A stretch of DNA of 64,000 bases from an uncultured Bacteroidota bacterium (lineage in GTDB: Bacteria; Bacteroidota; Bacteroidia; Bacteroidales; JAAUTT01), in contig CAVYAE010000034.1 of the NCBI GenBank assembly GCA_963766305.1, positions 202,041 through 266,040 on the forward strand, written 5' to 3'. Shown piece after piece: positions 47,720-59,620 of this stretch. Position 1 is the first letter of the stretch. Every line of letters starts with the position of its first letter. A program made the translations under genes and the position numbers. Under the pieces are notes generated by a model, which made no database searches, was not told the origin of the DNA, and saw only the letters and a program-made list of their open reading frames with translations.

Positions 47720-50700
47720 TTAAAGTTTCAGAATTTTTCTTATCACCATACCTTTATCCGGGGTATATATTTTAATGAAATAAATACCCGCAGAAAAATT
47801 GCCCATATCAATTGCGGTTACACCATCAGTTAAATCTGACGAGTAAACTTCTTCTCCGTCAGCTTTATATATCAATATTTCAGTATTATCGGGAGTAAAT
47901 GGAAGATACACATTCAATAATTTAGTAACCGGTACCGGATATAATTTAACATCCTGATTATCTATAGTTAAGACATTTGTTTTTGGATTGGCCTCCTGTA
48001 TTACAATTATTGTTTGCGGATCTGCACCGGTGGCTGAAACAACCAGGGTATCGGTTCTTGGCTGTCCAAGAGGATTGGATGATGCTGTTAAAATAATATC
48101 AGCAGTATCGGAACCATAATTTACATCAGGGGTGACCCAGTTTTGCTTTTCATTTATGGTCCAGCTGACATTTGACCATATAGTAAATGTTGCCTTACTA
48201 TTTGAAATATCAGGTACATTTAATGTATTAGCTGACACAGATAAAGTGGCAGCTAATACTTTCATAACAATGGAATTGCTTATAACAGTATCGTTGTCAA
48301 AAATTGCCCTGCATGAAATACTATCTCCGTTTAGAGGAACATAACTTAAAATTGTGCTGTCTAAACCAACTTTTTTACCATTCACCAACCATTGCAATAT
48401 TACAGGCTGACCTGGTGAAACTTTTTCTGCTTTAATAGTAATTGATGATCCCGGATAAACAGTGTCAGAATTTGCAGTAATCTGAACAATAGGTAAAATA
48501 TTAAATTTGTTCCATGGAGGAGTTGCTTTATATAGGCTTATCGAATTATATGGCACATATAAGTTTTTAATAGCATCCTCGTAGAAAGCAGAACTATCAA
48601 TATTTCCTGTCAAGGGCGTAGGGTTTAGATCAACAATTGAATTAAATTCTGAACTAAAAAAAGCATAATCTCCAATATAAGTAATCGAAGAAGGAATTGT
48701 TAATGATCCTGTAAATTCACAACCATAAAAAGCATCTTGGTCTATACTTGTAACCGAAGAGGGAATAATTAATGGCCCTGTTAAACCTGGACAATCAAAA
48801 AATGCCCCACCCCCAATATGAGTAACTGAAGAAGGAATGGTTAAGGTACCTGTAAATCCAGAATTTGCAAAAGTCTCAGGTTCAATATAAGTAATCGAAG
48901 AAGGAATGGTTAAGGAACCTGTAAATCCCCAACAATCTGTAAACGCCCCATCTCCAATATAAGTAACTGAAGAAGGGATAATTAATGATCCTGTTAATCC
49001 GGAACAATTTGAAAAAGCATAATCTCCAATTGAATTAACATTTGTTGGGTAGGTTATGGATGTCAAGGATGTTTTGGGTATTTCTGTATGTTGATTGTAA
49101 AACGCATATTGAGGAATTGCATTTGCAGGATAAGTATCCATATTTGCATCCTGAGTCCCATATTTCCCTGTATATGCAGTAATTGTAGCACCTTTTAAAT
49201 TAATAACAGTTAAAGATGGCATACTGTCGCGCATTGTTTTAAAGTCGCGTGCATCAATAGTTCCCGTAACCGTCAGATTGCTGGTTGTACTTAAACAGGA
49301 GTGTATTAATGTATTCAATGTTCCAGGAGTAGCAACCGTAATACTCATGTTATTACTACATGTAAAACCAGAAAAATTTATCACAATTGCATTGCTAGGA
49401 ACAACATATCCGTTAATAGTCACATTACAAGTAATTATATCGCCATTTTCAGGCTTATAACCGATTAAGGAGTCTCCTGTACCTGTAGGGTTACCGTTTA
49501 CCTGCCATTGTAATGGCAAAGATTTACCAATTAAACCTGTATCAGCTGAAAAAGTAACGAAATTGCCCGTATGCAGCGTATCTGTACTACAGTAAATTTG
49601 AATAACAGGTAAAATATTAATACTACTCCACCAGGGTAATGCTTTATATGCCATGACCGAGCCATATGGCACATATAAGTTTGGGATATTACCAGCGAAT
49701 AAAAAGACACTTTCGCCCATAGCACTTTCACTCAGGGGCACCGGATTTAATGCAATAATTGATCTTAAGTTATTACAAAAAGAAAAAGCTCTGCTCCCTA
49801 TAGACGTAACTGAAGGAGGTATGGTTAAAGTACCTGTGAATCCGTAACATCCATTAAAGGCATAATCCCCTATAGAAGTAACAGAAGAAGGAATGGATAA
49901 TGGTCCTGTAAATCGACCACAAGCCATAAAAGCATAATTTCCAATATTAGTAACTGAAGATGGTATGTTTAATAATCCTGTAAAACTACAACCATTAAAA
50001 GCCCAACTTCCAATAATAGAAACCGAAGAACCAATTGTCAAGGTACCTGTAAAACCACAACCGCCAAAAGCATCATTGCCAATATAAGTAACTGAAGAAC
50101 CAATGTATAGGGAATCTTTAAATCCGGAACATCCAATAAAACTATAATCTCCAAGATAAGTGATAGTAGAAGGAATAGTTAATGAACCTGTTAATCCCGA
50201 GCAACCGGAAAATGCATAATCTCCAACAGATTCAACATTGGAAGGAATAGAATATGTCCCTGTCTTTCCTTGAGGACATTCAATAATTGTTGTTTTATTT
50301 TTATTAAATATCACTCCATTGATACTACTATAAAAAGGATTAGACTCTTCAACAATAAAATCAGTTAATCCTGGTGATGTAAAAGCTTCATTTCCAATGT
50401 ATGTAACCGAAGACGGGATGGTTAAAGAGCCTGTAAATCCACAACCACGAAAAGCTTCGTCTCCAATATAAGTAACTGAAGTACCTATAGTTAAAGAATC
50501 TTTACATCCGGAACATCCATTAAAACTATAACCTCCAATATGAGTAACAGAAGAAGGAATGGTTAATGAACCTGTTAATCCCGAGCAACCGGAAAATGCA
50601 AACTCACCAATAGAATCAATCGAAGAAGAAAGGTTTAAGGAACCGGTTAAACCATTCAAACCAGCAAAAGCATAATTTCCAATGAATGAAATATTAACAG

Positions 50701-51070
50701 GGAAGGTTATGGATGTAAGTGATGTTTTGCCTATATATGTCAGTTGATTGAAAAAAGCATATTGAGGTATTGCGTTTGCAGGATAGATGTCATTATTTGC
50801 ATCCTCTGTTCCATATGTTCCTGTATATGAAATTATTGTAGTGCCAATTAAATTAATAACAGCCAAAGATGGCATACTGTCCCTCATGGTTTTAAAGTCA
50901 CGCGCATCAATGTTCCCTGTGACTGTAAGATTGGTTACCGTGGTCAAATATGCTTTTGCTACTGAATCTAAAGTACCCGGGATAGTAACATGTGCTGTAT
51001 CATAAACCTGCGCATTTAATGCAGCAGTTAAAAAAGAAAAAATTATGGGTATGGCATTCTTTATTAACAT
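47720..51070 (-). CDS. BspA-type leucine-rich-repeat surface protein with T9SS C-terminal domain; internally duplicated
   Basis: About 23-aa LRR units (IPSSVTxIGxxAFxGCxGLTGSLT) in two homologous modules; C-terminus VKLYPVPVTKLLNVYL...GIYFIKIYT. Confidence 0.8.
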   Translation of the reverse strand: MLIKNAIPIIFSFLTAALNAQVYDTAHVTIPGTLDSVAKAYLTTVTNLTVTGNIDARDFKTMRDSMPSLAVINLIGTTIISYTGTYGTEDANNDIYPANAIPQYAFFNQLTYIGKTSLTSITFPVNISFIGNYAFAGLNGLTGSLNLSSSIDSIGEFAFSGCSGLTGSLTIPSSVTHIGGYSFNGCSGCKDSLTIGTSVTYIGDEAFRGCGFTGSLTIPSSVTYIGNEAFTSPGLTDFIVEESNPFYSSINGVIFNKNKTTIIECPQGKTGTYSIPSNVESVGDYAFSGCSGLTGSLTIPSTITYLGDYSFIGCSGFKDSLYIGSSVTYIGNDAFGGCGFTGTLTIGSSVSIIGSWAFNGCSFTGLLNIPSSVTNIGNYAFMACGRFTGPLSIPSSVTSIGDYAFNGCYGFTGTLTIPPSVTSIGSRAFSFCNNLRSIIALNPVPLSESAMGESVFLFAGNIPNLYVPYGSVMAYKALPWWSSINILPVIQIYCSTDTLHTGNFVTFSADTGLIGKSLPLQWQVNGNPTGTGDSLIGYKPENGDIITCNVTINGYVVPSNAIVINFSGFTCSNNMSITVATPGTLNTLIHSCLSTTSNLTVTGTIDARDFKTMRDSMPSLTVINLKGATITAYTGKYGTQDANMDTYPANAIPQYAFYNQHTEIPKTSLTSITYPTNVNSIGDYAFSNCSGLTGSLIIPSSVTYIGDGAFTDCWGFTGSLTIPSSITYIEPETFANSGFTGTLTIPSSVTHIGGGAFFDCPGLTGPLIIPSSVTSIDQDAFYGCEFTGSLTIPSSITYIGDYAFFSSEFNSIVDLNPTPLTGNIDSSAFYEDAIKNLYVPYNSISLYKATPPWNKFNILPIVQITANSDTVYPGSSITIKAEKVSPGQPVILQWLVNGKKVGLDSTILSYVPLNGDSISCRAIFDNDTVISNSIVMKVLAATLSVSANTLNVPDISNSKATFTIWSNVSWTINEKQNWVTPDVNYGSDTADIILTASSNPLGQPRTDTLVVSATGADPQTIIVIQEANPKTNVLTIDNQDVKLYPVPVTKLLNVYLPFTPDNTEILIYKADGEEVYSSDLTDGVTAIDMGNFSAGIYFIKIYTPDKGMVIRKILKL

Positions 51071-51254
51071 GTTGGATTTGTTTAGGAATTAATAAATTTA
51101 GATTTGCTTTTTTATTGGTATTATAAATCGGGAGGCTTGCCAATAAAACTTTAAACAAACATAAATCATATAATTAATCCATACAAGTACTTATTGATCA
51201 GCAATTATATAATGTTGATCAACCCTGTTATTCACAGGACAGAAAAATATAATA

Positions 51255-51974
51255 TTAATTCCCAAATACTTTCTTAAGTAAATCTGAGGTCTGGGCTAAA
51301 GGATCCTTGCGTATTTTATATTCTTCTTTAGCTATCATAATAAATAAACCATCTATGGCCTTGCCGGTTACGTAAGCAGTAAGGTCGGGATTTAGTTTTT
51401 TTACAAAAGGAATCCTGTTATAGGCTTTTATAAGTTCTTCCCAATGCTTTGTGGCTTCAACCTTATCGAGCGATGATTTTATATTTGGGCGGAATTTTTC
51501 GTTTAGCTGCGGAGAAGTGGTTTTTTGAAGGTATTTTGTGGCTGCGTCATTATCCCCCTTTACAATATTAATTGCGTCGGTAAGACTCATATTTTTAATT
51601 GCATCTATAAAAATATCTTTGGCATCTTTGGAAGCATCCTCCGCAGCCCTGTTGATAGATAAAACAGTTTCGTCGACCTGTTTCCCCATTCCTATTGACC
51701 TTAACTTTGATTCCATGTCTTTTTCCTCCGGAGGAAAAGGTATTTTTATTTCAACATTTCCAAAGTAGCCATTTTGCTGAGAAACCAAATTGACGCTGTT
51801 ACCAGTACCTTTTACCAGGGCTTCCTTTATACCGTCCGCTGCTTCACTTTCGCTGAACCCGGTGCCATTTTGCCCCATCAGTTTTTTTGCATCATTTAAT
51901 AACTGGGCATTTAAATTATAAACTGTAAACGACAGCAATACAATAAATAATGACATTAAGTTTTTCATAACCAC
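51255..51974 (-). CDS. DUF4197-like secreted protein
   Basis: Signal peptide; SESEAADGIKEALVKGT... and DLLKKVFG C-terminus typical of this family. Confidence 0.65.
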   Translation of the reverse strand: MVMKNLMSLFIVLLSFTVYNLNAQLLNDAKKLMGQNGTGFSESEAADGIKEALVKGTGNSVNLVSQQNGYFGNVEIKIPFPPEEKDMESKLRSIGMGKQVDETVLSINRAAEDASKDAKDIFIDAIKNMSLTDAINIVKGDNDAATKYLQKTTSPQLNEKFRPNIKSSLDKVEATKHWEELIKAYNRIPFVKKLNPDLTAYVTGKAIDGLFIMIAKEEYKIRKDPLAQTSDLLKKVFGN

Positions 51975-52162
51975 ATTTTTAAGTTTTTAGATGTTGTAAT
52001 ACTAATTAACGTTATAAAATGTATTTGGCATAAATCATGCCATTATAAAATTGAATTTAAAGCTTTTGAAAAATTATTTTCAATACTGAAGTTAATTAAA
52101 TATTTCTGATAATTTTTTTCTTAAAAATTTTGAATTATTTAAAAATTTATTTTCCTTTGCTG

Positions 52163-52179
52163 AAGTATATACTATACTT
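52163..52179 (+). other. candidate oriT hairpin (AAGTATA tac TATACTT) overlapping the 10-bp palindrome AGTATATACT
   Basis: Read directly; about 100 nt upstream of the MobV relaxase start in a very AT-rich spacer with CTGAAGT direct repeats (52086, 52160). Confidence 0.3.
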
Positions 52180-52277
52180 TATACAATTACGCTTTATATA
52201 AATAAGTTTTGATTCGGCTTTTTAATTTCAATAGAGGTTAATCAAGGGTACAATAATAAAATTAAAAGAATACGATT

Positions 52278-53348
52278 ATGACACAGTTTGCAGTTTTACA
52301 TATCGACAAAAACAAGGGAGGCCAGATTGGTTTGAGCAAACACATCAGCCGGGAAACAATACCCGCCAACGCTGATCCTTCCAGGTTGCACCTCAATGAA
52401 ACACCCGTTGGAACACGTAACCAGATGCAGGATATTAAAAACCGTATAAACGAAGGTGTCAGTCAAAAAACATCCATAAGGAAAGATGCTGTAAAAGCCA
52501 TGCAAATAATTTTGACAGGCAGTCATGAACAGATGAAGGTTATTGAAAACAACGGCCAGTTAAATGACTGGATGAATCAGAACATTTCCTGGTTAAATGA
52601 AACCTTTGGCAAGGCCAACGTGGTAAATGTAACTCTCCATATGGATGAACTGACCCCGCATGTTCATGCCACCGTAGTGCCTATTACCAAAGACGGAAGA
52701 TTATGCGCCAAAGATTTTATGTCAAGGGATCAGTTGCGGAGTTACCAGACTGGCTATGCCAAAGTAATGGAACCTTTTGGACTTTCCCGCGGGCTGGAAG
52801 GCAGCAGGGCCAAACATCAGGATGTAAAGCAATATTATGCAAAACTTAACCATGAACTACCTAAAATAAACAAGGAACTTGAAGAAAAACAGGAAACTGT
52901 AAAAGTGCTTAAAAATGAGATCAGGGTTGACTCTGCATGGAAGACAGTAACAGGTTTGGTAGATGGGTTTGCAAAAAGAAAAGAAATAAAAGACAAGGAG
53001 GAAGAAATTTTATTATTGAAGAAAACAGTTGAACAACTTTCTGTCAATCTTGAAAATTTGAAGAAGGAACATGAAAAGTCGGGCATTGAATTAATTAACA
53101 CTAAAAAAGAATTTTCATCCTTGCATTCTGAGATAGATAAAGCATTTAAAGAAGGTATAAAGAAAGCAGTAAGTACAGTTAATAATTTAATATTCAGTCA
53201 AATTGAAAAGCCAAATTTTCAGTTTGAACTTACCTTCAAAAACGAAAAGCCTGTAATAGAATTGAAACATATCAAACCAACAAATCATGTGCCTACAGTG
53301 GAAGAGATTATGGGTAAAAAGATAAGGAAAAACAATTTGGAGCTGTAA
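52278..53348 (+). CDS. MobV-family (Mob_Pre) relaxase / plasmid recombination enzyme
   Basis: N-terminal FAVLHIDKNKG, motif HMDELTPHVHATVVP (HxDE..PHxH), coiled-coil C-terminal half. Confidence 0.85.
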   Translation: MTQFAVLHIDKNKGGQIGLSKHISRETIPANADPSRLHLNETPVGTRNQMQDIKNRINEGVSQKTSIRKDAVKAMQIILTGSHEQMKVIENNGQLNDWMNQNISWLNETFGKANVVNVTLHMDELTPHVHATVVPITKDGRLCAKDFMSRDQLRSYQTGYAKVMEPFGLSRGLEGSRAKHQDVKQYYAKLNHELPKINKELEEKQETVKVLKNEIRVDSAWKTVTGLVDGFAKRKEIKDKEEEILLLKKTVEQLSVNLENLKKEHEKSGIELINTKKEFSSLHSEIDKAFKEGIKKAVSTVNNLIFSQIEKPNFQFELTFKNEKPVIELKHIKPTNHVPTVEEIMGKKIRKNNLEL

Positions 53349-53374
53349 ATCTTATAATCAACATACTTATATAT

Positions 53375-54826
53375 ATGCAAACAACTAAAACTATAACTTA
53401 TATTACTCTGTTAATGTTATTTTTTATGAACAGTGTTATCGCACAAAAAATAACTATACAGGGCACCAAGTTTTACAGGGACGGACAAGAGATTTGGTTT
53501 AACGGAGCCAATACTCCCTGGGACAACTGGAACGATTTTGGAGGAAACTACAACCACCAGTGGTGGGACACTGCTTTTAAATACCTGCAAAGAGCCCACA
53601 TCAACATGACCAGGATATGGATAAGCTGTTCAGGTGAAGTTGCCCCAACTATAGACAGTTCTGGAACGGTGACAGGTGTGATACCTGCATTTTGGTCCGA
53701 TGTAGATGATCTTGAAAGAATTGCAAATAAATATCAAATATATGTGCTTTCGACCATGATGTCTTTCGACAATTTTGAAAATAACCATCCTGATTCATCC
53801 AGTTGGAGGAAAATGATTAGCGATTCATCCAAAGTGAGGACTTATATAAATAATTATCTGGTACCATATGTTCAACGCTATGATAGCAGTAATTACTTTT
53901 ATGCAATAGATCTCTGCAATGAGCCGGAATGGATAAACCAAAACGCTGCCGAAGGTAAGTTACCTGTTTCATATCTGCAAAGATTTGCAGCTATGTGCGC
54001 CTCTGCAGTGCATAAAAACAGTTCAAAGCTTGTCACAATTGGCAGTGCAAGTGTAAAATGGAACAGCAGCAGCAAAGGTTCACAATTTGTTGCAAACTGG
54101 TGGTCAGACGCAAACCTTAAAGATGCCAATAATAACGACAGCACTTCACGTTTCGACTTTTGGCAAACTCACTATTATGACTGGATGTATCCTTATTATG
54201 GAGCCCCATTTACTAAAACCTTGGTCAGTTTTGGGATGACAACCGACAGACCAACCCTTGTTGGTGAGGGTCCGGGCAAAAATGATGAAGGATATTCCAT
54301 CATCCAAATGTACCAGTATACCTGGACTAATGGTTTTGCAGGTTACTGCTCCTGGACTTCCAATGGTGTTGATGGCAATGGCATACTTTCCGACTTCGAA
54401 CCTGGCACTGATACTTTTTTTACAAAACATATGCTGTTGGTTTACCCTTCAAATGTACCAGCATCCGGAATAAAAGTAAGTCCGGTTCAGGCAACTATTG
54501 CAAAAGGGCAAACACTACAACTTACCGGCACAGTTATACCACAAGGTGCAAGCCAGGCTGTAGCCTGGTCATCAAGCGATACATCCATTGCAAGGGTAAA
54601 TATCTGGGGTATGGTCACTGCTCTCGAACCGGGTAGTGTTATTATAACGGCAACATCAGCAGAAGGGGGTTTTACAACTACATCAGATATAACCGTTTAT
54701 TCGGGCACTGCCATTGAAACAAAAGAAAATGATGCTGCAAGCATAATTATTTATCCAAACCCATTAAATATTACCTGTTCACCTCTCCTGTTTTCCGCTT
54801 TGGGACACCCTAAAAATTTTTATTAA
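53375..54826 (+). pseudogene. GH5 glycoside hydrolase (mannanase/cellulase-like) + Big_2 domain, 3' end interrupted by IS insertion at 54786/54787
   Basis: Signal peptide; DLCNEPEW (acid/base NEP), LVGEG; Big_2 (VSPVQATIAKGQTLQLTGTV...SSDTSIARV). The ORF runs into the IS terminal repeat (..YPNPLNITCSP|LLFSALGHPKNFY*). Confidence 0.8.
54726..54786. repeat. left copy of 61-bp direct repeat (GH5 coding sequence) flanking the IS composite
   Basis: AAAATGATGCTGCAAGC...TTACCTGTTCACCTCT identical to 59003-59063. Confidence 0.9.
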
Positions 54827-56423
54827 TAATTTGATATAGTTCCGATTGTTCCTCATCCATATTCAGTAATCTGGATTTTGTTTGTTTGGATTCAGGTAAA
54901 GTGTATGTTATCTGATACATGTTATGAGTTATTTCAGCTGCTTTCTTAAGGGATAAAGTTGATTTCTCCAGGTAAAGTACCCTTTCTAACTCTTTGTAGA
55001 CACAATATGCAGTAAATGCGATACATATGTGAGCTTCAATGCGTCTTTCCAGTCTATGATAAATTGGCCTTATCCGAAGATCAGTTTTAGACATGCGAAA
55101 TGCCCTTTCAATATGCCAAAGATTTTTATAGTTTTCAACTATTTCATTTTCTGATAGTTTTGTATTGGTTATATATCCTTTCAATCCATCCCATTTCTGA
55201 TCATCATTGAATTTATCATAATCGATTTCAATTGTCACATCTCCAATTAGTTTTAAATATTTATTATAACCTTTGTTATTGATATTAGCTTTGGTTAGCC
55301 TGCCTCTATTTACCTGTTTTTCCAGTCTGGTTAAGCCACGTTTTCGGTTGTAGGCATCCTTTACTGCCCGGGTATTGGCATAACTTACGATCAGTCTTGT
55401 TCCTTTGGATTTTGAATAACTTTTTGTACCTCCATCTTCAAATACAGTGGATAATATCTGTGTTTTTAGAGTTTGAGTTTCATTTTTTATCCTGGCACCC
55501 AGAATATATTCATAATCATTAGCTTCTAATGCTTTAATATTCTCAGTAGACAAAAGTCCTGAGTCTGCAATTACAACCGGCTTGTTCAAATTAAATTTGG
55601 CACTTATCTTTTCAAGGAACGGTATCAGTGTGTGTCCTTCGTAAGTATTGCCCTGGAAAATTTCATATCCAATGGCATATCCTCCAAGCCCGACCAGTAA
55701 CCCGATAAATATTTGTGGACACTGATGTTTTCCATCTTTGCTAAATCCTGTTTTCCTGAGATCATCTTCATCACTGGCTTCAAAATACAAGGTAGTCATA
55801 TCGTAAAAAACAACACTGATCTCCCCGTTCAAAAGCTTTTTGGTGTGGGCAAATGCAATTTGTTCCACTTCAGGTTGTAGTTTGCTATTGAGCTTATCTA
55901 AGAAACGATAAATGACATCACTATCAAGGCTTACTCCTTGATATCTATATAAATAATCGATGGTTTTAAGTTTACTCAAAGGATAAGCTAAACGGGCAAT
56001 AACCAAATGCCGGAATAAATCTTCCTTGATTGATGAAAAACCGATATAATCATAAATTTTCCCAAAGGTGATTTCTGGTCCAAGGGTTCGGATATTGGAA
56101 TTATTTAAAACTTCAAATGCATGATCTATTGCAGAGTCACTAGGACCTAAAAACAATTTTGGTTGAGCAGTTAGCTTTTCTATCTCTTCGCGAGCCTTAC
56201 ATTCTAATTGTTCAATTTCCTGCTGTGTGGTGGCAGAACCTATTGTTTTTAATACTTTATAATTACCTCTAACTTTCTGTATCACTTGAATTGAGAGGCT
56301 TCCTGAGTGATTTGGTTTCCTACGGATGTACATAAAATAAAATTTCGGGACACCCAAATTAAAAAAACTTTCCTTATTTTACAAGGGTTTTAGAGGGTGT
56401 CCCGAAAAAGTGCGGAAAACAGG
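54787..56423 (-). mobile_element. IS1634-like (IS4-related) insertion sequence, complete copy (element A, 1637 bp)
   Basis: Termini CCTGTTTTCCGC...GCGGAAAACAGG, with imperfect about 25-30 bp inverted repeats including GGGACACCCT; single DDE transposase gene. Confidence 0.85.
54810..56333 (-). CDS. IS1634-family DDE transposase (element A)
   Basis: MYIRRKPNHSGSLSIQVIQK N-terminus, VVFYDMTTLYFEA (D), VVIADSGLLS (D), WHIERAFRMSKTDLRIRPIYH (E/K). The tracked ORF adds 8 codons from a TTG at 56357. Confidence 0.85.
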   Translation of the reverse strand: MYIRRKPNHSGSLSIQVIQKVRGNYKVLKTIGSATTQQEIEQLECKAREEIEKLTAQPKLFLGPSDSAIDHAFEVLNNSNIRTLGPEITFGKIYDYIGFSSIKEDLFRHLVIARLAYPLSKLKTIDYLYRYQGVSLDSDVIYRFLDKLNSKLQPEVEQIAFAHTKKLLNGEISVVFYDMTTLYFEASDEDDLRKTGFSKDGKHQCPQIFIGLLVGLGGYAIGYEIFQGNTYEGHTLIPFLEKISAKFNLNKPVVIADSGLLSTENIKALEANDYEYILGARIKNETQTLKTQILSTVFEDGGTKSYSKSKGTRLIVSYANTRAVKDAYNRKRGLTRLEKQVNRGRLTKANINNKGYNKYLKLIGDVTIEIDYDKFNDDQKWDGLKGYITNTKLSENEIVENYKNLWHIERAFRMSKTDLRIRPIYHRLERRIEAHICIAFTAYCVYKELERVLYLEKSTLSLKKAAEITHNMYQITYTLPESKQTKSRLLNMDEEQSELYQIINKNF

Positions 56424-56432
56424 AAATACCTT

Positions 56433-58079
56433 CCTGTTTTGTGCAATGCATGACCCAAATCAAAATTTCATTTTTATTAGTTGGTTCTGAATGGAGTTTA
56501 ATCGGAGTAATTTTTTCTTGACCTGCTTTGATTTAGGAAGTATATAGTTTATTTGTCTCATGTTGTTAATTTCCTTTAAGGCCTTTTCGGCTGATAATGA
56601 GATGTTATTTAATTTTAGTAACCGCTCCAACTCTTTGTATATTTTATATGCACAAAAACAAATGCACAGATGAGCTTCAATTCTCTCTCTAATTCTATGA
56701 TATATTGGCCTTATTCTCAGATCACTTTTAGAAATTCTAAACGCTTTTTCTATTTGCCATAACTGTCCATAATTAACTACTACATTCTTTGGAGACAAGG
56801 TAGTATTTGTAATATACCCTTTCAATCCATCCCAGAGACTATCCTCATTAAATTTTTGGTAATCAATGGCTATAGTTGCATTGCCAGTTAACGCTAAGTA
56901 TTTATTATACCCTCTGTTATTTATATGTTCTTTTGTTAGTTTTCCGGTTTTAACTTTTTTTTCCAGGCGTATTAACCCTTTCACCCTGTTTGCCTTATCA
57001 TTATGTGAGCGGGATGAAGAATATGTGACAACCAGTCTGCCATTGGAATGTCTCAATTCCTGTGGTTGACCTTCAATAAGTTTCATTTCCAAAACTCGAT
57101 TCTTAATCACCTCACTTTCATTCTTTAACCTGCCGCCTAAAATATATTGATAATCTTCTGCAACCAATGCATCTATGTTTTTCTGAGAAAGTAAGGCTGC
57201 ATCAGCAATAATTATGGGCTTATCTATTAAAAATCTCTTCTGGAATGCTTCCAGAACAGGAATCAGCGTTTTTGTTTCTGAGGTATTTCCTTCAAATACT
57301 TCATATCCTATCGGGTACCCGTTTATTCCAACCAATAAACCGATTACTATTTGTGGTTGTTGAAATTTACCGTCTTTTGAATAGCCGATTACTCGAAAAT
57401 CATCTTCTTCTGAAGCCTCAAAATACAAGGTGGTCATATCATAAAACACAACGCTTATTTTACCTTGCAATAGAGCCTTGGTGTGAGAAAAGGTAATATT
57501 TTCTATTTCCTGTTTGTATTTCCTGTGTAGTTCATCCAGATATCGATAAACTGTATAAACACTGATATCAATGTTTAAATGTTCTTTAAAATATTCTATT
57601 GTCTTTAACTTGCTGCCTGGATAAACTAATCGACATAGCACTAAATTTCTAAACAAATTATAATTATCATCCTGTGGATAGCCAATTTGTTGATATATTT
57701 TGCCTAATATCAAATCTGCCCCCACAATTTTTAAATTTTCAACTGACAAACTATCAACAAAAGAATCTATTACAGCATCATCATGCTCATAAAACAAACT
57801 CTGATAACCTTGCATTTGTTCCATCTCATTTTGTGCTTGCAAAAGCAACAATGATTCTTCCTGCTTGGTTTTGGCACATCCAATAGTCTTCAATACTCGG
57901 TTCTGTCTTCCGATTTTTGTTACAATCTGAATACTGATTGAGCCACTACGATTCCTATTTTTCCTGATAAACATTCTGCAAATATAGCTTGCAGCACCCA
58001 AAATGACCCATTTTATTTCTATTATTATCTGATAACTTGACATTTATATTTTGAGCGCTCATGTGGCGCACAAAACAGG
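56433..58079 (-). mobile_element. second, related IS1634-like insertion sequence (element B, 1647 bp)
   Basis: Termini CCTGTTTTGTGC...GCACAAAACAGG; own transposase, with roughly half its residues identical to A by eye. Confidence 0.8.
56460..57974 (-). CDS. IS1634-family DDE transposase (element B)
   Basis: MFIRKNRNRSGSISIQIVTK..., VVFYDMTTLYFEA, IIIADAALLS, WQIEKAFRISKSDLRIRPIYH; tracked ORF extends to 58043. Confidence 0.85.
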   Translation of the reverse strand: MFIRKNRNRSGSISIQIVTKIGRQNRVLKTIGCAKTKQEESLLLLQAQNEMEQMQGYQSLFYEHDDAVIDSFVDSLSVENLKIVGADLILGKIYQQIGYPQDDNYNLFRNLVLCRLVYPGSKLKTIEYFKEHLNIDISVYTVYRYLDELHRKYKQEIENITFSHTKALLQGKISVVFYDMTTLYFEASEEDDFRVIGYSKDGKFQQPQIVIGLLVGINGYPIGYEVFEGNTSETKTLIPVLEAFQKRFLIDKPIIIADAALLSQKNIDALVAEDYQYILGGRLKNESEVIKNRVLEMKLIEGQPQELRHSNGRLVVTYSSSRSHNDKANRVKGLIRLEKKVKTGKLTKEHINNRGYNKYLALTGNATIAIDYQKFNEDSLWDGLKGYITNTTLSPKNVVVNYGQLWQIEKAFRISKSDLRIRPIYHRIRERIEAHLCICFCAYKIYKELERLLKLNNISLSAEKALKEINNMRQINYILPKSKQVKKKLLRLNSIQNQLIKMKF

Positions 58080-58912
58080 AGAATATATTCATAATCATTA
58101 GCTTCTAATGCTTTAATATTCTCAGTAGACAAAAGTCCTGAGTCTGCAATTACAACCGGCTTGTTCAAATTAAATTTGGCACTTATCTTTTCAAGGAACG
58201 GTATCAGTGTGTGTCCTTCGTAAGTATTGCCCTGGAAAATTTCATATCCAATGGCATATCCTCCAAGCCCGACCAGTAACCCGATAAATATTTGTGGACA
58301 CTGATGTTTTCCATCTTTGCTAAATCCTGTTTTCCTGAGATCATCTTCATCACTGGCTTCAAAATACAAGGTAGTCATATCGTAAAAAACAACACTGATC
58401 TCCCCGTTCAAAAGCTTTTTGGTGTGGGCAAATGCAATTTGTTCCACTTCAGGTTGTAGTTTGCTATTGAGCTTATCTAAGAAACGATAAATGACATCAC
58501 TATCAAGGCTTACTCCTTGATATCTATATAAATAATCGATGGTTTTAAGTTTACTCAAAGGATAAGCTAAACGGGCAATAACCAAATGCCGGAATAAATC
58601 TTCCTTGATTGATGAAAAACCGATATAATCATAAATTTTCCCAAAGGTGATTTCTGGTCCAAGGGTTCGGATATTGGAATTATTTAAAACTTCAAATGCA
58701 TGATCTATTGCAGAGTCACTAGGACCTAAAAACAATTTTGGTTGAGCAGTTAGCTTTTCTATCTCTTCGCGAGCCTTACATTCTAATTGTTCAATTTCCT
58801 GCTGTGTGGTGGCAGAACCTATTGTTTTTAATACTTTATAATTACCTCTAACTTTCTGTATCACTTGAATTGAGAGGCTTCCTGAGTGATTTGGTTTCCT
58901 ACGGATGTACAT
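58080..58912 (-). pseudogene. truncated element-A transposase (N-terminal about 277 codons only)
   Basis: ORF 58025-58936 is identical to the 515-aa protein up to ..EANDYEYIL, then reads into the element B terminus (LFCAPHERSKYKCQVIR*). Confidence 0.85.
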
Positions 58913-59002
58913 AAAATAAAATTTCGGGACACCCAAATTAAAAAAACTTTCCTTATTTTACAAGGGTTTTAGAGGGTGTCCCGAAAAAGTGCGGAAAACA
59001 GG
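58080..59002 (-). mobile_element. partial copy of element A (right-hand 923 bp, equivalent to 55501-56423)
   Basis: Sequence identical to 55501-56423 wherever compared; ends with the same GCGGAAAACAGG terminus. Confidence 0.85.
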
Positions 59003-59063
59003 AAAATGATGCTGCAAGCATAATTATTTATCCAAACCCATTAAATATTACCTGTTCACCTCT
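59003..59063. repeat. right copy of the 61-bp direct repeat
   Basis: Identical to 54726-54786. Confidence 0.9.
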
Positions 59064-59256
59064 TTATATCAAAGGTTTGACAAAAGGCAGCCTGGAACTA
59101 ACATTAAGTGATATTGAAGGCAGAATTATTTACACGGATAAATCTTTTATTTCAGAATCGGTTTATTCATTATCTCTTGGGAATATTACCAACGGATATT
59201 ATAATTTAAGGATTATAAATAACGGCTTGGTTTTCACTAAAAAACTTATTATTTAG
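59003..59256 (+). pseudogene. orphaned 3' end of the GH5 gene encoding its T9SS C-terminal sorting domain
   Basis: Own translation in the GH5-continuing frame: NDAASIIIYPNPLNITCSPLYIKGLTKGSLELTLSDIEGRIIYTDKSF...GYYNLRIINNGLVFTKKLII*, stop at 59254-59256. Confidence 0.8.
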
Positions 59257-59270
59257 AATTACTCCCTTCC

Positions 59271-59620
59271 AATGTCCGGAAATAAAGCCGGATGCAAGGC
59301 TTGCGCAGTCAGAAAAAGCGGAGTTTACTGAGGTAAATGAGCATTTTTATGACAAGCATAACACAGCAGCTGGTGTTTATATGATAATGTCCGGAAATAA
59401 AGCCGGATGCAAGGCTTGCGCAGTCAGAAAAAGCGGAGTTTACTGAGGTAAATGAGCATTTTTATGACAAGCATAACACAGCAGCTGGTGTTTATATGAT
59501 AATGTCCGGAAATAAAGCCGGATGCAAGGCTTGCGCAGTCAGAAAAAGCGGAGTTTACTGAGGTAAATGAGCATTTTTATGACAAGCATAACACAGCAGC
59601 TGGCTTTATTTCCGGACATT
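59271..59620. repeat. three head-to-tail copies of a 115-bp unit; the last copy closes a 120-nt imperfect palindrome with 19-bp perfect terminal inverted repeats
   Basis: Units start at 59271, 59386, 59501 and are identical over the first 100 nt. AATGTCCGGAAATAAAGCC (59501-59519) is the reverse complement of GGCTTTATTTCCGGACATT (59602-59620). Confidence 0.9.

Follow-up and report, generated by a model that had tools for sequence, protein, structure and literature searches.

A 64,000-nucleotide stretch of the genome of an uncultured Bacteroidota bacterium (GenBank assembly GCA_963766305.1, contig CAVYAE010000034.1, positions 202,041 to 266,040), hereafter called the window, contains a glycosidase-like gene that is interrupted by a 4216-bp block, and this block is a real and recent insertion of a compound unit made up of insertion sequences (ISs) of the IS1634 family. 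The unit comprises a complete IS (element A), a 9-bp spacer, a second, related complete IS (element B) and a further copy of the right-hand 923 bp of A (A'), and is bracketed by a 61-bp direct repeat which is a true target-site duplication (TSD) of the whole block. We hold it rather probable that this recent unit arose in two steps, in which B inserted into A at an earlier locus, here designated X, and the resulting compound unit transposed into the gene. The features concerned are given below in window coordinates, L083 being an independently assembled contig that carries the gene without the insertion and ORF standing for open reading frame.

53375..54786, plus strand: 5' part of the target gene, with the GH5-like catalytic region, Big_2 and the first 12 residues of the C-terminal sorting domain of the type IX secretion system (T9SS)
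54726..54786, unstranded: left copy of the 61-bp TSD, equal to 59003-59063 and single in L083
54787..59002, minus strand: inserted compound unit, 4216 bp; in L083, 54786 is continued immediately by what here follows 59002
54787 and 59002: outer termini of the compound unit, namely the left terminus of A (CCTGTTTTCCGC) and the duplicated right terminus of A (GCGGAAAACAGG)
54787-56423, minus strand: element A, complete IS1634-family IS of 1637 bp, termini CCTGTTTTCCGC / GCGGAAAACAGG
54810-56333 (ATG) or 54810-56357 (TTG), minus strand: transposase ORF of A
55501..56432, unstranded: left copy of the putative 932-bp target duplication by B, consisting of the last 923 bp of A and 9 bp of presumed former A flank
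56424..56432, unstranded: 9-bp spacer AAATACCTT between A and B
56433-58079, minus strand: element B, complete IS1634-family IS of 1647 bp, termini CCTGTTTTGTGC / GCACAAAACAGG
56460-57974 (ATG) or 56460-58043, minus strand: transposase ORF of B
58025-58912, minus strand: A' fusion ORF of 295 amino acids, an N-terminal transposase fragment plus 17 codons from the end of B
58080..59002, minus strand: A', the duplicated right-hand 923 bp of A, 100% identical to 55501-56423
59003..59063, unstranded: right copy of the 61-bp TSD, matching the left copy and single in L083
59064..59256, plus strand: 3' remainder of the target gene, encoding the remaining part of the T9SS sorting domain and ending with the stop codon
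GCACAAAACAGGAGAATATATTC: junction sequence characteristic of the compound unit

By exact string comparison, positions 55501-56423 and 58080-59002 form a 923-bp direct repeat and positions 54726-54786 and 59003-59063 a 61-bp direct repeat, both 100% identical. When extended to their limits, the exact repeats measure 926 bp (55501-56426 = 58080-59005) and 62 bp, since AAA opens the spacer as well as the gene flank and a G is likewise shared. Identical repeats of this length, lying flush with IS termini, cannot be chance, and the coordinates and identities which an earlier, sequence-only reading had assigned to A, B, the spacer and the two repeats all hold in repeat search and string comparison. 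Joining position 54786 to 59064 in silico rebuilds an ORF of 534 amino acids, and a protein search retrieved an intact protein (P0001) that is 100% identical to it. This protein is encoded on L083, a Logan contig of the sequencing run ERR11523660, which is 100% identical to window positions 50571-54786 and then runs straight into 59003-59300 (4216 + 299 bp). It contains the 61-mer once and neither IS sequence nor AAATACCTT. That the first of these alignment blocks has the length of the compound unit, 4216 bp, is a coincidence. Since L083 represents the empty site with a single 61-mer, 54787-59002 is an insertion and the 61 bp are its TSD. The sequence-only reading had taken the 61-bp repeat for the target duplication of A; a genuine TSD it is, as L083 demonstrates, but one that brackets the whole A-spacer-B-A' block and not A alone. 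An allele of the gene holding A only was not seen, the empty L083 being the only other allele found.

The unit has structural hallmarks of a compound transposon, as termini of the same IS bracket it in inverted orientation (CCTGTTTTCCGC at 54787, GCGGAAAACAGG at 59002), one TSD flanks it as a whole and it is missing from the otherwise identical L083. Both A and B are intact within it, and a truncated gene for the A transposase is present as well. This truncated gene lies in A', which contains the first ~278 transposase codons together with the region upstream of them and the terminus, and the resulting fusion ORF carries half of the DDE_Tnp_1 domain; that this truncated transposase might act as a regulator or inhibitor of A is pure speculation.

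The assignment of both elements to the IS1634 family, already made from the bare sequence, was borne out by their transposases, which score 360.1 bits (A) and 359.0 bits (B) against NF033559, the NCBIfam model of the family, at a cutoff of 100. The second-ranked family model, IS4, reaches 43 bits and stays under its cutoff, and no family other than IS1634 passes its own. DDE_Tnp_1 (PF01609), a DDE domain of the IS4-superfamily type, was detected with E = 4.5e-19 in A and 4.2e-18 in B. The published table of the family gives a length of 1500-2000 bp and a terminal consensus C-----YT (PMC2266710), which A and B fit with their 1637 and 1647 bp and with ends that both start CCTGTTTT, having C at position 1 and TT at positions 7-8. 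Between the two elements the DNA is ~65% identical over the central 955 bp and the transposases are 52% identical. Scanning genomes with the A transposase yielded 80 loci of 51-79% identity, nearly all in Bacteroidota and many of them in two chromosome-level metagenome-assembled genomes (MAGs), OZ244113.1 and OY764079.1; the termini CCTGTTTT / AAAACAGG are conserved among these relatives, with CTTGTTTT in one lineage. The closest long-contig relatives of B are 66% identical, lie on megabase-scale JGI contigs and have their termini in common with B.

B is an independent element, found in other samples between different flanking sequences. Four other unrelated sequencing runs, the run holding the empty site among them, yielded copies of 99.9-100% identity to it, each with different flanks and each ending at T-CCTG...CAGG-A. 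The possibility that the flanking T...A forms part of the IS ends was rejected, as with CCTG...CAGG for boundaries the exact TSDs of some relatives have G or C as their first base, or A as their last; the exact duplications with an initial G or C show CCTG...CAGG to be the IS ends and the flanking T and A to be a target preference. A flank of B found in the Logan contig L088 is absent from the window. A itself recurs in another assembly (L087 5820-7384, ENA ERZ25039486) as a copy of 99.9% identity, in which the loss of 72 bp from between the transposase start codon and the terminus has fused the ORF with sequence upstream of it. No target duplication was detectable around this copy, which is therefore uninformative on TSD length, and a relative of 85% identity (L086) lies on a contig too short for its TSD to be measured. 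No exactly matching protein record was retrieved for the two transposases (each tried from both of its possible starts), for the cluster representative P0121 or for the A' fusion ORF. In the 64-kb window no further copies of A or B, and no second compound unit, were found, and an Rfam search of it gave no matches.

Long and variable target duplications of IS1634 and IS1549 have been known since 1999. We measured TSDs in the Bacteroidota relatives on long or chromosome-level contigs by comparing the bases upstream of the left terminus with those downstream of the right terminus. The 41 TSDs thus obtained range from 19 to 620 bp with a median of 149 bp, are nearly all exact and abut the IS termini in every case, with zero filler; those of B-like elements (relatives at 66% identity) measure 105, 163, 236, 330, 356 and 601 bp. 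Of 48 elements flanked on both sides by 1 kb or more, 7 had no detectable duplication. Since the measured relatives span this range, a TSD of 61 bp is ordinary for the clade. The sequence-only reading had expected long, variable duplications to be typical, which the 41 TSDs confirm, and the short, fixed duplications in other copies that it had named as counter-evidence did not turn up. The cut sites, for which both joints of each event were pooled, show a clear preference: the first base of the duplication is A in 70 of the 82 sites and the second a purine in 73, in A-rich surroundings. A test for a helical periodicity of 10-11 bp in the TSD lengths was negative. For IS1634 and IS1549, direct repeats of 8-514 bp have been reported, for which the 2008 review of the family had no mechanistic model, while ordinary family members make AT-rich duplications of 5-6 bp (PMC2266710), as does ISGka5 of Geobacillus kaustophilus with 6 bp (PMC8024623). 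This typical duplication was not encountered here (61 bp in the window; 19-620 bp in the relatives), which is no bar to membership of the family because the same behaviour is on record for IS1634 and IS1549. As in that long-duplication subgroup, the repeats are variable, measure tens to hundreds of base pairs, lie flush with the termini and are single in the empty site. A description of long duplications in this Bacteroidota clade was not found in the searchable literature.

Some further arrangements were recorded during this survey. Related IS copies lie close together more often than expected, which may reflect either a preference for the ends of resident ISs or local hopping; the gaps between them amount to 109 bp (L025 3908-7570), 65 bp (L052 55-3549), 1.4 kb (L073 857-5546) and 9 bp (window 56424-56432). 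At L076 3888-7389 the gap is 190 bp and the TSDs, of 97 and 141 bp, overlap. An A-like element at L047 3762-5835 has a direct repeat of ~110 bp that is displaced by 16 bp on one side and by 181 bp on the other, and does not fit a simple TSD.

The joints of B bear the usual insertion signature (...CCTT|B|AGAATA). When the duplication of B is defined as the sequence that abuts both of its ends, it corresponds to 55501-56432, i.e. 932 bp composed of 923 bp of A and the 9-bp spacer. Scored with a cut-site profile built from 80 real joints, the boundaries 55501 and 56432 reach 4.05 and 1.37 bits, at the 85th and 31st percentiles of the real joints, and the spacer AAATACCTT scores like a normal flank of A. 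The right-hand copy of this duplication is predicted to end in AAATACCTT, but after the A terminus at 59002 it meets the 61-mer of the gene instead. The spacer is foreign to the target gene, as it is missing from the empty site L083, and it lies outside B, as the near-identical copies of B end at the positions given above with different flanks.

The following course of two events would account for these observations most simply. Long, variable TSDs would result if the ends of the transposon were joined to the target at points separated by tens to hundreds of bases, with subsequent filling of the gap. A would have resided at the earlier locus X, with a right flank beginning AAATACCTT, when B inserted astride its right end, with one joint inside A (55500/55501) and the other 9 bp outside it. 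Repair of this intermediate would duplicate 932 bp and give rise to the order A, 9 bp, B, A' (the last 923 bp of A) and once more the 9 bp. The A transposase may then have paired the left terminus of A with the distal, duplicated right terminus and so have carried the unit of 4216 bp into that part of the GH5-like gene which encodes the T9SS sorting domain, generating the 61-bp duplication; the insertion as such is documented by L083 and was presumably accomplished in one step. The second 9-bp copy, outside the terminus, would have stayed behind at locus X, and locus X or its remnant is expected to be marked by GCGGAAAACAGGAAATACCTT without CCTGTTTTGTGC directly after it. The sequence-only reading had already considered the 923-bp repeat an extreme target duplication made by B inserting into A; this idea is supported in a modified form, with a probable duplication of 932 bp that includes the spacer and that would have been made at a previous locus. 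It had also stated that neither of its models explained the spacer, a statement that no longer stands, since the spacer can be read as a relic of the earlier locus of A: the 932-bp duplication of B would have included 9 bp of the old flank.

A natural counterpart of the proposed intermediate is present in the Chitinophagales MAG OZ244113.1 (L025, chromosome-level). Here a second, inverted IS copy lies 109 bp beyond a resident copy, and its 282-bp TSD consists of the last 173 bp of the resident plus the 109-bp flank; in silico removal of the second copy and of one duplicate leaves the resident with a perfect TSD of 223 bp. By analogy, L025 may be regarded as a direct analogue of the step in which B inserted next to A: as in the window, a related IS entered just outside a resident and a long TSD copied the resident's terminus together with its flank. 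Unlike in the window, the flank copy persists after the duplicated terminus, so that this structure has not moved and corresponds to the proposed intermediate rather than to the final product. Insertion of a B-like element into another IS was also found, at L098 3566-5872, where an element of 66% identity to B lies inside an unrelated DUF4372/DDE_Tnp_1 IS with a 330-bp duplication (2 mismatches) that copies the N-terminal region of the host transposase.

Several points weigh against the proposed history. Locus X was not found: a metagenome scan with the right terminus of A plus the spacer gave two chance matches, in unrelated human-gut genes. The compound unit is known from this one copy only. 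The 932-bp duplication is 1.5x the longest TSD measured (620 bp) and lies above the published maximum of 514 bp (PMC2266710). The inner junctions rest on the assembly, the B/A' fusion ORF being on record only from the source contig, and an identical sequence would result from gene conversion of a simple A insertion with locus X as the donor. In this last scenario, an A-9bp-B-A' locus elsewhere converted a simple insertion of A that had its 61-bp TSD, through an exchange in A on one side and in the 923-bp A' on the other; the outcome is exactly what is observed. Identical IS copies are good substrates for recombination, and recombination between copies is suggested by the 7 of 48 elements that lack a TSD. 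Such a conversion calls for one event more than compound transposition, and the A-only allele from which it starts was not seen at the site, where the only other allele found is empty; we therefore deem it unlikely. The same low probability applies to a build-up in situ, with A entering the gene first and B then inserting into A with a duplication of 923 or 926 bp that ends at, or 3 bp past, the A terminus, and with B bringing along, on its left, 9 or 6 bp that would be filler or derive from the donor flank. This requires as many transposition events as compound transposition, agrees equally well with the 61-bp TSD and the empty site, and the long TSDs it invokes are normal in the clade. Against it, the spacer and the gene flank differ at 5 of 9 positions, yet the 923-bp copies are 100% identical; the 6-9 bp of filler have no parallel in any of the 41 TSDs; and the cut sites needed, 56426 or 56423, score -6.8 and -7.6 bits, lower than all 80 real sites, versus 1.37 for 56432. 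A cut precisely at the A terminus would moreover be a coincidence.

That the arrangement is an assembly chimera, in which a loop (right part of A, 9 bp, B, right part of A) from elsewhere was threaded into a simple A insertion, seems more improbable still. The perfect identity of the 923-bp repeat, the multiple copies of A and B in the community and the restriction of the junction ORF to the source contig speak for such an artefact. However, in sister assemblies from this ENA series the contigs reach 341 kb and are named 'contig_N', as is typical of long-read assemblers, the source contig itself measures 268,898 bp, and long reads easily span a repeat of 923 bp. Both inner junctions also carry normal insertion-site signatures, for which reason the insertion of B into A with a 932-bp duplication would be real even in a chimera, only at another place. 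Very improbable, and the least likely of all these scenarios, is the alternative of the sequence-only reading, namely two direct full copies of A flanking B, followed by an adjacent deletion mediated by B that took away everything between the right end of B and position 714 of the second A. Clusters of directly oriented related copies at short distances do exist (L076, 190 bp; L052, 65 bp), but this route takes at least four events, the most of any scenario considered, it still requires a transfer from elsewhere to account for the spacer, and the geometry of the 923-bp repeat is that predicted for a TSD, with L025 as a direct analogue.

Compared with known systems, A and B resemble IS1634 of Mycoplasma mycoides and IS1549 of Mycobacterium smegmatis in belonging to the NF033559 transposase family, in their length of 1.5-2 kb, in termini that start with C and in target duplications that are long and variable without a fixed length (published as 8-514 bp, PMC2266710). 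They differ in belonging to a Bacteroidota clade, in having CCTGTTTT(C/G) termini and in a range of 19-620 bp measured plus one presumed duplication of 932 bp. With ordinary members of the family, such as ISGka5, they share the transposase family and the overall architecture, whereas these members make 5-6 bp duplications (PMC2266710; PMC8024623) and none of the 41 TSDs of the clade is under 19 bp. In Mycoplasma mycoides, a copy of IS1634 separates the two units of an unstable 13-kb tandem repeat, for which the authors invoke IS-mediated tandem duplication (PMC1798306); this geometry is as expected of a giant target duplication.

Among the IS4-related elements, IS10 and IS50 are classical cases of compound transposition from outer ends, as the constituents of Tn10 and Tn5, respectively. 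The unit described here resembles these in that one transposase would act on two outer IS termini around other DNA, with a single TSD for the whole. In contrast to Tn10 and Tn5, its second arm is a 923-bp partial copy that was apparently made as the target duplication of another IS and not by independent insertion, its arms are direct instead of inverted, and its passenger is another IS and not a resistance gene. What appears modestly new is the deduced length of the duplication, the longest found for the family, and the origin of the second compound arm in a TSD; the locus is otherwise largely ordinary.

We give about even chances to the more general claim that the two target joints of IS1634-family elements can lie ~1 kb apart and that a terminus duplicated in one step can thereby create a new compound transposon that moves as a unit. 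If true, the arms of a compound transposon may arise from a target duplication and not from a second independent insertion, and long duplications, by copying an IS terminus, can create mobile compound units. The survey shows long duplications to be general in a widespread Bacteroidota clade, which offers dozens of exact natural events for probing their unexplained mechanism. For annotators, partial IS copies and repeats of gene fragments beside these elements are to be read as products of transposition and not as assembly errors.

With regard to the host, the effect of the insertion is simply that one glycosidase-like protein loses its secretion signal. Pfam detected only Big_2 and Por_Secre_tail (the T9SS sorting domain) in the target protein and no GH5 domain, the label 'GH5' resting on the source names of homologues only (cellulase GH5, endo-mannosidase). 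In the intact P0001/L083 allele, Por_Secre_tail occupies residues 442-517; the insertion point lies 12 residues into this 75-residue domain, of which 63 residues are lost. Judging from the sequence, the T9SS is expected to be unable to export the truncated glycosidase-like product. Directly upstream of the GH5-like gene, window 52278-53348 (plus strand) encodes a MobV-family relaxase (Mob_Pre; NF041497, 197 bits), which suggests that the neighbourhood of the target gene is part of a mobilisable element or of an integrated plasmid remnant. Just downstream of the interrupted gene, window 59271-59603 consists of a perfect 115-bp tandem repeat of 2.9 copies, inside which the short-read contig L083 stops and which holds an inverted-repeat motif of 25-27 nt (AATGTCCGGAAATAAAGCCGGATGC).

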